The notes below the pieces were generated by a model, which saw nothing but the letters and a program-made list of their open reading frames with translations, did no database searches and was not told the DNA's origin. From assembly GCA_900539265.1 (NCBI GenBank), contig UQBM01000008.1:4095-68094 (forward strand): 64,000 bases of DNA, given 5' to 3'. The stretch's first letter is position 1. Each line of letters begins with the position of its first letter. This DNA is from an uncultured Mollicutes bacterium. GTDB lineage: Bacteria; Bacillota_I; Bacilli_A; ML615J-28; CAG-313. The translations under genes and the position numbers were made by a program. Below, one piece after another: positions 31,882 through 33,870 of the stretch.

Positions 31882-32958
31882 ATGGTTACAATTAGTTTAT
31901 GTATGATCGTCAAAAACGAAGAGGATACTTTAGCGCGCTGTCTCGATTGTATTAAGGATATCGTCGATGAAATAATTATTGTTGATACTGGTTCTACTGA
32001 TCATACAAAAGAAATTGCAAAAAATTATACAAATTTAGTATATGACTTTAAATGGATTGATGATTTTTCAGCAGCTCGTAATTATTCTTTCTCAAAAGCA
32101 ACTAAAGATTATTGTCTATGGTTAGATGCAGATGACATAATTTCAAAAGAAAATCAAGAAAAACTTAAAAAATTAAAAGAAACATTAACAATAGATATTG
32201 ACTTTGTTATGATGCAATATCAAATTGCATGGGATGAATTTAATAATCCTACTTTTCTATACTATCGAGAACGTCTAATTCGTAACAATAAACTTTATCT
32301 TTGGGAAGGTGAAATACATGAAGTTATTACAACAAAGGGTAAAATTATTTATTCAGATATAATTATAATTCATAAAAAAATTCATAAAACTGACCCTAAT
32401 AGAAATATTAATATTTTTGAAAAATTAATTAATAGTGGTAAAAAATTATCTTTAAGGCATCAATTTTATTATGCTAGAGAATTATATTATCACAAAAGAT
32501 ATAAAGAGGCTATAACATACTTGGAAAATTTTATAAAAAATCCTAATGCATGGCTAGAAAATAGACTTGATGCAATAAGAATTTTATCATTTTGTTATAA
32601 TAAAGAAAATTTAAAAGAGAAAATTCTTCCAACTCTTTTATATAGTTTAGAATTGGATATACCTAGAGCTGAAATTTGTTGTGAAATTGGACAATATTTT
32701 CTAAATAAAAAACAATATAAACTAGCAATATTTTGGTATGAACTTGCACTAACAAGACCTCAAGAAAGTAAATCAGGTGGATTTATCTTATCTGATTGTT
32801 ATGGTTATATTCCAAATATGCAACTATGTGTTTGTTATTATCATTTAGGAGAATACAATATTGCTAATGAATATAATGAAAAAGCAGGAATATTAAAACC
32901 CAATGATAACAATTATAAGATAAATAAAAAATTTTTTCAAAATTTATTAAATATATGA
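31882..32958 (+). CDS. family-2 glycosyltransferase with a C-terminal TPR-like helical domain (SunS/glycocin-type peptide glycosyltransferase family)
   Basis: Strong RBS AAAGGAGG. The N-terminal GT-A fold ([14 protein letters not shown] ... [10 protein letters not shown] ... [11 protein letters not shown] ... [12 protein letters not shown]) has a DxD motif. The C-terminal part, about 150 aa, consists of TPR-like helical repeats ([20 protein letters not shown] ... [10 protein letters not shown] ... [10 protein letters not shown]). The motif order recalls SunS (KWKNDFSYARN, DADNLYSKEN) as remembered, not searched. Confidence 0.7.
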
Positions 32959-32969
32959 AAGGAGAAAAA

Positions 32970-33746
32970 ATGAATTTTAATAACGCTTTTGGTTTTCCTC
33001 AAAGACCAAATAATAATTGTGGATGTCGTCAAATACCTAACAGCAATTGTAATTGTAATTTCTGCAATCAACATAGAGGCGCAACTGGACCTACAGGTCC
33101 CACTGGTCCTATGGGTCCAATAGGACCTAGAGGTTTTAGAGGTCCTACTGGTGCTACTGGCCCTACTGGTCCATCAGGAGGTGCTACAGGTCCTACTGGT
33201 GCTACTGGCCCTACTGGTGTTACTGGCCCTACTGGTCCTACTGGCCCTACTGGTGCTACTGGTCCTACTGGTGCTACTGGTCCTACTGGTGTTACTGGCC
33301 CTACTGGTCCTACTGGTGCTACTGGCCCTACTGGCGCTACTGGTCCTACTGGTGCTGATGCAACAACCCCTATTTTAACAATTGGTACAGTAACTACCGG
33401 CGCTCCAGGTTCATCAGCCTCTGCTACTATAACTGGAATTTCACCTAATTTTGTTTTAAATTTAACTATCCCTGCTGGCCCTACTGGTCCTACTGGTCCT
33501 ACTGGTCCTACTGGTCCTACTGGTGCTACTGGCCCTACTGGTGCTGATGGTACTGATGGTACAGATGGTGCCGATGGTGCTACTGGTCCTACTGGCCCTA
33601 CAGGTCCTACTGGTCCTACTGGCCCTACTGGTGCTGATGGTACTGATGGTACAGATGGTGCCGATGGTGCTACTGGTCCTACTGGCCCTACAGGTCCTAC
33701 AGGTCCTACTGGTCCTACTGGCCCTACTGGTCCTACAGGTCCATAA
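32970..33746 (+). CDS. collagen-like triple-helix repeat protein (BclA-like GPT/GAT repeats) with a Cys-rich N-terminus
   Basis: The RBS AAAGGAG sits inside the 3' end of the glycosyltransferase gene, so the start is the second ATG at 32970. The N-terminus is [35 protein letters not shown]. Collagen segment 1 contains about 30 GXY triplets (GPT/GAT/GVT). It is interrupted by a 40-aa non-collagen stretch ([41 protein letters not shown]). Collagen segment 2 contains GPT plus [15 protein letters not shown]. The ORF ends in GPTGP with no C-terminal globular domain. Confidence 0.85.
33178..33360 (+). repeat. imperfect tandem 63-72-nt repeats within collagen segment 1
   Basis: The protein-level unit [21 protein letters not shown](GPT) is repeated about 2.5 times. 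Confidence 0.6.
33531..33710 (+). repeat. near-perfect 90-nt tandem direct repeat x2 within collagen segment 2
   Basis: ggccctactggtgctgatggtactgatggtacagatggtgccgatggtgctactggtcctactggccctacaggtcctac... occurs at 33531 and again at 33621, encoding [30 protein letters not shown]. Confidence 0.85.
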
Positions 33747-33829
33747 TGATTAACTTTAATAAGATTATAAAACATTATTTATAATATTTTATAATCTTAT
33801 CTTTCGTCTATATTATGAAATATAATAAA

Positions 33830-33870
33830 AAAGTCTATAAATTTAGTAAATTTATAGACTTTTTTATATA
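33830..33870 (+). terminator. rho-independent terminator of the glycosyltransferase/collagen-like operon
   Basis: Hairpin AGTCTATAAATTT-AGTA-AAATTTATAGACT followed by TTTTTATATA. Confidence 0.7.

Follow-up and report, generated by a model that had tools for sequence, protein, structure and literature searches.

A glycosyltransferase and collagen-like protein gene pair of the sgtA–bclA3 type in an uncultured gut 'Bacilli' lineage

The collagen-like protein BclA3 and its glycan are a major surface antigen of Clostridioides difficile spores, and BclA3 is required for the entry of spores into intestinal epithelial cells (PMC7157674; PMC7893008). Directly upstream of bclA3 lies sgtA, which encodes a glycosyltransferase of 358 amino acids with a GT-A domain at residues 1-260 and a tetratricopeptide repeat (TPR) region at residues 262-358 (PMC7157674). 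Recombinant SgtA transfers N-acetylglucosamine (GlcNAc) from UDP-GlcNAc, and not from UDP-GalNAc, onto Thr, and also Ser, of BclA3 collagen-repeat peptides; the product formed in vitro is beta-O-GlcNAc, the reaction is Mn2+-dependent, and the O-GlcNAc reactivity of the spore surface is lost in an sgtA mutant (PMC7157674). Together, sgtA and bclA3 make up an operon that is served by sigma-K promoters (bioRxiv 10.1101/2025.06.24.661383), and CD3350 (sgtA) and CD3349 (bclA3) are both down in a C. difficile sigK mutant (PMC3789822). Here we describe a gene pair in a 64-kb stretch of contig UQBM01000008.1 (the window), which belongs to the metagenome-assembled genome (MAG) of an uncultured member of the 'Bacilli' and in which the gene for a glycosyltransferase (GT) is followed by the gene for a collagen-like protein (CLP). 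We found that this pair is a new example of the sgtA–bclA3 type of system.

A glycosyltransferase of the SgtA type

GT can be aligned with C. difficile SgtA without a single gap over 357/358 amino acids, at 55% identity and 73% positives (E 2e-147). The SgtA sequence used for this comparison came from a C. difficile locus (L001) that we located with a published sgtA primer as an exact DNA pattern. By this measure, SgtA is the closest characterised relative of GT. Both enzymes are 358 amino acids long and join a GT-A domain to a TPR region, and in both genomes the enzyme gene lies directly upstream of, and in the same orientation as, a GPT-rich collagen-like gene. The likeness extends to the short N-terminal domain of the collagen-like partner, in which a Cys patch abuts the first Gly-X-Y (GXY) triplet, to a sigma-K-type motif upstream of the enzyme gene, and to the lack of a secretion signal in either protein. 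The two loci differ in their gene junction, which here is a gap of 11 nucleotides (nt) with the ribosome-binding site at the stop codon, whereas in C. difficile it measures about 80 nt and holds an extra internal promoter. They differ also in the collagen-like protein itself, which is 258 amino acids long in the window compared to 661-678 in C. difficile, is without the BclA C-terminal globular domain and has an internal phage-tail-like domain of 39 amino acids. Finally, the host is an uncultured 'Bacilli' MAG with a small genome and not a member of the Peptostreptococcaceae. On the whole, these departures from BclA3 are modest.

A preliminary description of the window had suggested that GT and CLP would represent a new enzyme-substrate pairing, and had assumed that the BclA homologues of Clostridioides are glycosylated by unrelated enzymes. 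Neither proposal holds. SgtA is itself an enzyme that combines a glycosyltransferase family 2 (GT2) domain with TPRs, and this protein of 55% identity, which adjoins bclA3 and in vitro O-GlcNAcylates Thr within the collagen repeats of BclA3 (PMC7157674), is a precedent for the pairing. The apparent novelty is thus corrected, in that a GT2-TPR enzyme dedicated to a collagen-like protein was already established by SgtA and BclA3. Nevertheless, many gut Firmicutes loci, including that of a prevalent uncultured low-GC Bacilli species, combine an SgtA-like enzyme with GXT collagen repeats that follow a Cys-rich N-terminus. Given the role of BclA3 as an antigen of C. difficile and in epithelial entry, homologous cassettes in commensals could have a bearing on how spores interact with the host and on how specific glycoconjugate vaccines against spores are.

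Our favoured reading, to which we assign a probability of about 80%, is that the two genes are a cassette of the sgtA–bclA3 type, expressed in the mother cell, in which GT O-glycosylates Thr residues of CLP and the resulting glycoprotein is placed on the spore surface. A sigma-K-type promoter, active in the mother cell during late sporulation, would probably drive GT and CLP together. As a soluble, metal-dependent (DxD) GT-A enzyme, GT would probably hold its repeat substrate by means of the TPR-like domain and would use a UDP-sugar, most likely UDP-GlcNAc as SgtA does. The O-linked sugar would be added in the cytoplasm to Thr at the Y position of GPT, GAT and GVT triplets, which offer 45 candidate sites. 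CLP, which is without a signal peptide, would then trimerise into a collagen triple helix, and its patch of five Cys could join the chains by disulfides and/or cross-link them to a spore surface layer rich in Cys. The end product would be glycosylated, hair-like filaments on the spore surface that are deposited from the mother cell. The lack of a signal peptide or membrane segment in either protein fits cytoplasmic modification followed by deposition from the mother cell.

The domain composition of GT given in the preliminary description, a GT-A catalytic domain with a DADD motif and a C-terminal TPR-like helical domain, was borne out by both Pfam and structure prediction. Pfam placed Glycos_transf_2 at residues 5-125 (1.7e-22) and several TPR matches (TPR_2, TPR_8, ANAPC3) at residues 263-340. 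The AlphaFold2 model, which was built with 42 homologues and reached a mean predicted local distance difference test (pLDDT) score of 95.8, displays a GT-A strand/helix domain and then, as assigned by DSSP, 11 helices within residues 174-357 that constitute the presumed acceptor-binding domain. The DADD motif is invariant in two family alignments of 36 and 42 sequences, and its counterpart in SunS is DADN. No membrane segment was predicted in GT (maximum KD19 1.17). The enzyme belongs to a large family, with more than 7,990 database clusters matching GT at E < 1e-5; the best 120 of these are mostly about 355-365 amino acids long and 53-92% identical. An SgtA homologue of 487 amino acids from NCBI (P0004) has approximately its first 130 residues tandemly duplicated, either as a genuine partial duplication or through an error of assembly.

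GT had further been classed as a SunS-type enzyme, which is correct with respect to its fold. In a Foldseek search of the PDB, SunS (7msn; E 2.3e-19, TMq 0.66) and ThuS (7msk; E 7.4e-18) outscored GT2 enzymes of the generic kind, WrtF and TarP among them, by a wide margin (E 4e-9 or worse, TMq about 0.36 for the latter), and the SunS and ThuS structures 7msn, 7msp and 7msk were together the best whole-protein matches (E 2e-19 to 7e-18, TMq 0.66). Like GT, these peptide- or protein-directed GT2 enzymes consist of a GT-A domain with a DxD motif followed by a helical TPR-like domain. In contrast, their sequence identity to GT is 20-27%, SunS is longer (422 amino acids, with an extra N-terminus of roughly 50 residues), and the acceptor to be expected for GT is Thr of collagen repeats, not Cys of a helical hairpin peptide. 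The assignment to the SunS family itself could not be upheld. Although TIGR04195, the equivalog model for SunS, ranks first among the NCBIfam matches of GT, the alignment covers model positions 58-310 of 421 and scores 74.3 bits, compared to a curated cut-off of 350 bits, and among the neighbouring genes in the window there are none for a glycocin precursor, a peptidase-ABC exporter (SunT-type) or a thiol-disulfide oxidoreductase (Bdb). On these grounds we place GT outside the SunS family proper, despite its SunS/ThuS-like fold.

The structural kinship to SunS and ThuS bears on the residue that is modified. Conceivably, a glycocin-type enzyme was recruited to CLP and S-glycosylates the Cys residues of the CGC...CNCNFC patch, instead of or besides the O-glycosylation of Thr. 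ThuS modifies both Cys and Ser, and a Cys-rich patch is recurrent in the collagen-like proteins beside this enzyme family, which, together with the fold and the rank of TIGR04195, would suit such an activity. We nevertheless consider it distinctly improbable, as the TIGR04195 score remains far below its cut-off, GT is much closer to the O-GlcNAc transferase SgtA (55% identity) than to SunS (23-27%), glycocin-system genes are absent from the vicinity, and Cys residues that flank collagen helices usually form structural disulfides. Moreover, the acceptors demonstrated for SgtA are Thr and Ser of collagen repeats (PMC7157674). O-glycosylation of Thr therefore remains our preferred reading.

When the sequences of PDB chains were searched, the best match was the glycosyltransferase domain of GmaR from Listeria monocytogenes (PDB 22ao; E 1.7e-29 over GT residues 4-182), with SunS coming next (9e-20). 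GmaR is a flagellin O-GlcNAc transferase and MogR anti-repressor of about 637 amino acids with a long TPR/anti-repressor part. It acts on flagellin, whereas no flagellar genes are present at the window locus. In GmaR, too, a GT2 domain is joined to a TPR region (PMC9638930). Since SunS/ThuS and GmaR are nearest to the SgtA-type family among the solved structures, our analysis suggests that GmaR, SunS/ThuS and SgtA-type enzymes form one broader clade of protein-directed GT2-TPR enzymes.

Co-occurrence of enzyme and collagen-like protein

To follow the pairing beyond the window, we surveyed 80 metagenome loci that carry GT homologues at 43-92% identity and scanned their flanks for open reading frames (ORFs) with G-X-Y repeats. 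A locus was regarded as evaluable if each of its flanks extended for at least 1 kb (n = 43), and a collagen-like gene was counted as adjacent if it was co-oriented and lay within 600 nt. An adjacent collagen-like gene was found in 29 of the 43 evaluable loci (downstream in 22, upstream in 11 and on both sides in 4), and in 49 of all 80 loci despite their truncated flanks. The N-terminus of the adjacent protein is usually rich in Cys; of the collagen-like proteins encoded directly downstream, 36 have a short N-terminal domain with 3-15 Cys residues, although redundant strains account for many of them.

The survey confirmed that the two genes occur together in relatives, and orthologous pairs could be recognised as well. 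In L011, from a sister lineage, and in L014 the enzyme is 91-92% identical to GT, the flanking genes are the same and the collagen-like protein has the same N-terminus; the Cys residues of the patch are kept in L011. In L174, where the enzyme is 66% identical, the orthologous collagen-like gene begins 11 nt after the enzyme stop codon. Between the window and L011, dN/dS is 0.13 for GT and 0.06 for the N-terminal domain of CLP, both close to the value of 0.08 for the neighbouring glgB, indicating that GT and CLP are both under purifying selection.

Several loci showed variations on this arrangement. In L018, L021, L022, L024 and L028 the SgtA homologue lies between two collagen-like genes. The upstream protein has a Cys- and acidic-rich N-terminus (without Cys in L028, and unrecovered in L021) and a C-terminal domain that ends ...IEKLYRQ, and the downstream protein carries a BclA3-type C-terminal domain ending ...AGYASAGLSIN. 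In a further group, short collagen-like proteins (about 170-300 amino acids where complete) are encoded downstream of SgtA homologues (L038-L051, L055-L067, L083-L087) or, in L077, upstream. These share a helical C-terminal tail, ...VVNQFNxLLANLRxAGLL, possibly a coil for trimerisation in place of the globular domain of BclA. In addition, nine viral contigs from IMG/VR (L103, L104, L109, L121, L124, L131, L135, L148 and L158) encode GT2-TPR homologues of 26-37% identity with collagen-like ORFs within 5 kb, and in L158 three such ORFs lie directly upstream of the homologue. Pairing of this type of enzyme with collagen-like fibres may thus, as these contigs hint, extend to phages or giant viruses.

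The collagen-like protein and the layout of the operon

CLP matches the Pfam Collagen family (2.3e-26) and contains 60 GXY triplets in runs of 12, 19 and 29, among them 33 GPT and 10 GAT triplets; Thr occupies the Y position in 45. The N-terminal domain spans 36 amino acids, with Cys at residues 17, 19, 27, 29 and 32, so that the sequence of a five-Cys patch followed by GPT/GAT collagen triplets is as the preliminary description had it. Neither a signal peptide nor a membrane segment nor an LPXTG motif was detected in CLP (maximum KD19 0.96). The layout is like that of the BclA3 N-terminus, in which the Cys patch CNSGCDSCNSCDCHHGYPSSC runs into VGPTGP, and a GPTGPMGP(I)GPRG motif is common to both proteins. 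At the opposite end, CLP finishes with ...GPTGPTGP and has no BclA-type C-terminal globular domain, whereas BclA3-type homologues end ...VAGYASAGxxIN. The same ...GPTGPTGP end is present in three scaffolds of the same species, L005, L009 and L010, that of L010 being read across a frame shift at an N-gap; the 3' ends of the collagen-like genes of L006-L008 are unreadable and fall outside this comparison of C-termini.

The number of repeats varies in frame between samples, and several public scaffolds of the species (L005-L010) contain runs of N within the collagen-like gene, its second collagen region included, at about 7500-8400, with no gene call there. The repeat copy number in the window may therefore be under-assembled, and the gene is systematically missed in annotations.

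Among collagen-like proteins of spores, BclA of Bacillus anthracis and Bacillus cereus offers a second comparison. In BclA, which makes up the exosporium nap, Thr residues carry O-linked glycans (rhamnose/anthrose) that are products of other gene sets; the protein has an N-terminal exosporium-targeting motif and a C-terminal TNF/C1q-like domain. CLP resembles BclA in being a GPT-repeat collagen-like protein without a signal peptide, but unlike BclA it has a Cys-patch N-terminus and no C-terminal domain. This exosporium glycoprotein of Bacillus has been summarised elsewhere (PMC3789822).

The two collagen-like regions of CLP are separated by a mini-domain (residues 131-169) that is identical in the same-species scaffolds L005-L010 and matches a small domain of phage minor-tail proteins (phrog_6614, 1.4e-8; phrog_4120, 2.7e-7). 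It may have a role in trimerisation or registration. Collagen-like tail fibre and minor tail proteins of phages have GXY repeats that are broken by the same kind of small, beta-rich mini-domain, and CLP as a whole matches many PHROG tail-fibre families, GT matches phrog_13126 at 8e-48, and viral contigs encode remote GT2-TPR homologues, in some cases close to collagen-like genes. We therefore considered whether the locus could be a phage remnant, that is, a tail-fibre gene left in the chromosome together with a phage glycosyltransferase 'moron'. However, the 64 kb contain no other phage genes, and the pair is chromosomal, lies between housekeeping genes and is syntenic between the glgB operon and queA-ruvBA in all strains. 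The PHROG collagen matches are driven by GXY composition, and viral homologues of GT are at most 46% identical and rarely lie beside collagen-like genes, compared to 53-92% identity for the cellular homologues. Unlike the phage proteins, CLP is paired with an SgtA-type enzyme. A phage origin of the locus is thus barely credible, and we rejected it in favour of a chromosomal cassette of the sgtA–bclA3 type.

Two more unusual outcomes are conceivable. The enzyme might S-glycosylate the N-terminal Cys patch besides the Thr residues of the GXT triplets, or CLP might build a glycosylated surface filament of a previously undescribed kind. Such a filament, without a C-terminal domain, might be registered by a Cys knot and the internal phage-tail-like mini-domain, and its host would be an uncultured gut 'Bacilli' lineage with a small genome and a seemingly part-eroded sporulation programme. 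We regard this pair of possibilities, taken together, as improbable, and favour the cassette modelled on SgtA and BclA3.

The features of the locus are collected in Table 1. GT and CLP form the compact two-gene operon that had been proposed, with CLP starting on the same strand 11 nt after the GT stop codon, a ribosome-binding site ahead of GT, and a hairpin that closes the unit. The junction had been described as having the GT stop codon between two candidate CLP starts and the CLP ribosome-binding site inside the 3' end of GT. We found that the TGA (32956-32958) is indeed flanked by ATG 32955 and ATG 32970, but that the ribosome-binding site overlaps the GT gene only by the last base of the stop codon. 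Judged by the position of this site and by the MNFNN start, which is kept in the relatives L011 and L174, ATG 32970 (MNFNN...) is almost certainly the true CLP start; in both relatives the distance from the GT stop is likewise 11 nt. ATG 32955 was ruled out on the same evidence. An antisense ORF at 33068-33775 (235 amino acids with GPV repeats) was dismissed as a mirror artefact of the GPT repeats.

The perfect stem reported for the terminator was confirmed by direct folding, in which the hairpin reached -18.4 kcal/mol (z = -6.9 against shuffles). A consensus terminator scan gave no match for this hairpin, having overlooked it because the AT-rich stem has few G-C pairs. Since an A-run precedes the hairpin and a U-run follows it, it is possibly a bidirectional terminator.

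Table 1. Features of the GT–CLP locus, in window coordinates
Feature	Position	Strand	Remarks
Sigma-K-type promoter motif (putative), AC-N16-CATATTATA (ACATCTTTTTTATTGTTTCATATTATA)	31816-31842	+	Starts 66 nt upstream of the GT ATG
GT ribosome-binding site, AAAGGAGG	31870-31877	+	Read from the sequence; ATG 4 nt downstream
SgtA-like glycosyltransferase (GT) gene	31882-32958	+	358 amino acids and TGA stop; predicted SgtA-like protein O-glycosyltransferase
GT-A domain	About residues 1-170 of GT	+	Part of gene 31882-32958
DxD metal/nucleotide-sugar motif, D82-A83-D84-D85 within WLDADD	32125-32136	+	Family alignments
C-terminal all-helical TPR-like domain, residues 174-357	32401-32952	+	DSSP of the model; Pfam TPR
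CLP ribosome-binding site, AAAGGAG	32958-32964	+	5 nt before ATG 32970; shares the last base of the GT stop
Collagen-like protein (CLP) gene	32970-33746	+	258 amino acids and TAA stop; BclA3-like N-terminal and collagen regions
N-terminal 5-Cys patch, residues 17-32	33018-33065	+	Just ahead of the first GXY triplet
Collagen-like region 1, residues 37-130	33078-33359	+	12 + 19 triplets, interrupted by one residue at G73; chiefly GPT/GAT/GVT
Internal non-collagen mini-domain, residues 131-169	33360-33476	+	Separates collagen-like regions 1 and 2
Collagen-like region 2, residues 170-258	33477-33743	+	29 triplets GPT, GAT, GAD, GTD; ends ...GPTGPTGP
Intrinsic-terminator-like hairpin	33825-33867	+	20-bp perfect stem, 3-nt loop; A-run before, U-run after

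Promoter motif, sporulation genes and genomic neighbourhood

The strict form of the sigma-K-type motif occurs only 8 times on both strands of the 64-kb window, corresponding to an expectation of about 0.01-0.02 per 150 nt, and one of these lies upstream of GT. In 13 of 70 loci this strict motif also precedes the GT homologue, at a distance of 41-91 nt, compared to 20 of 2053 background windows of 200 nt, which amounts to an enrichment of about 19-fold. In the upstream region of C. difficile sgtA, AC-N17-CATATATTA is found in the equivalent place. A sigma-70-like -35/-10 pair is also present upstream of GT, at 31813-31841.

The window has a GC content of 28.4%, and the neighbours of the pair are glgBCDA, a Zn-ribbon membrane protein, queA, ruvBA, queT and mgtE. 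In every scaffold of the same species and in the sister lineage, the pair lies between the glycogen (glgB) operon and queA-ruvBA. Proteins of the window recur as exact copies in hundreds of metagenome contigs and in NCBI MAGs, under the label 'Bacilli bacterium' or the mislabel '[Staphylococcus sp.]'. A 'Staphylococcus sp.' MAG contains the exact QueA and Ffh of the window (MBS5852621.1, MBS5852625.1) as well as SpoVAD (MBS5852859.1), which is present on 567 contigs and whose gene lies inside a dacF-spoIIAA-spoIIAB-...-spoVAC/D/E-gerA locus of 27% GC. In L177 and L178, probably from the same species, dacF, spoIIAA, spoIIAB, spoVAC/D/E and gerA of this spoIIA–spoVA locus are intact.

In L174 (1638-6331), the pair of sgtA-like and collagen-like genes is divergently adjacent to spoVAC-spoVAD-spoVAE-gerA-rnj. 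The spoVA block is preceded by dacF-spoIIAA-spoIIAB in the window species and by the cassette in L174; the cassette has therefore moved relative to the sporulation genes.

A number of observations weigh against a spore-surface cassette in which GT modifies Thr of CLP. Neither Pfam context nor NCBIfam revealed any sporulation gene in the 64-kb window, and the spo locus is tied to the window by neighbouring GenBank accessions, the shared mislabel and a similar GC content (27% vs 28.4%), and not by a shared contig. In L177 and L178 (9186-9479), two separate assemblies, a sigma-factor ORF of just 97 amino acids, covering region 2 only, lies between spoIIAB and spoVAC. It may be a truncated sigF, which makes the ability of the host to sporulate uncertain, and sporulation, and hence sigma-K expression, may be impaired. 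The strict sigma-K-type motif precedes only 13 of the 70 homologues, and the enzyme is not always linked to a collagen-like protein, given that 14 of the 43 evaluable loci have no such gene next to it. CLP, lacking the BclA C-terminal globular domain, is not a strict orthologue of BclA3, and both the proposed donor sugar and the proposed acceptor residue are extrapolated from an enzyme of 55% identity.

Some of these findings would be accommodated by a vegetative or other non-spore role in a lineage that is losing sporulation. There CLP would act, for example, as a fibre that stays inside the cell or is freed by lysis, or as a surface structure that is exported along a pathway yet to be recognised. 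Besides the 97-residue sigma-factor ORF in both assemblies and the absence of sporulation genes from the window, the small genome of about 1.9 Mb and the sigma-70-like promoter pair upstream of GT point in this direction. On the other hand, CLP carries neither a signal peptide nor an LPXTG motif nor a membrane anchor, and the remaining genes of the spoIIA–spoVA locus are intact, with SpoVAD on 567 contigs. Furthermore, the sigma-K-type motif stands at the right position and its enrichment extends over the homologues, and the orthologous pair abuts the spoVA operon in L174. We therefore think a non-spore role unlikely, and retain mother-cell expression and a spore-surface location as the more probable reading of the sgtA–bclA3-type cassette.

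Three minor observations concern other genes. The sigma factor encoded next to rpmG is only weakly SigH-like, with 61 bits against a cut-off of 295 bits. A second motif, AC-N16-17-CATAnnnTA (sigma-E/K-type), lies on the minus strand at 30955-30980, roughly 165-190 nt upstream of glgB (28951-30792, minus strand). The glycogen operon is sporulation-controlled in B. subtilis; with about 7 such motifs per strand expected in the window, this one could be due to chance. Lastly, the gene at 30959-31504 (plus strand) encodes a predicted membrane protein of 181 amino acids, which had no NCBIfam match and a weak match to Pfam Zn_Ribbon_1; it carries a C-terminal zinc-ribbon (CxxC...CxxC) and is located just upstream of the operon in all strains.

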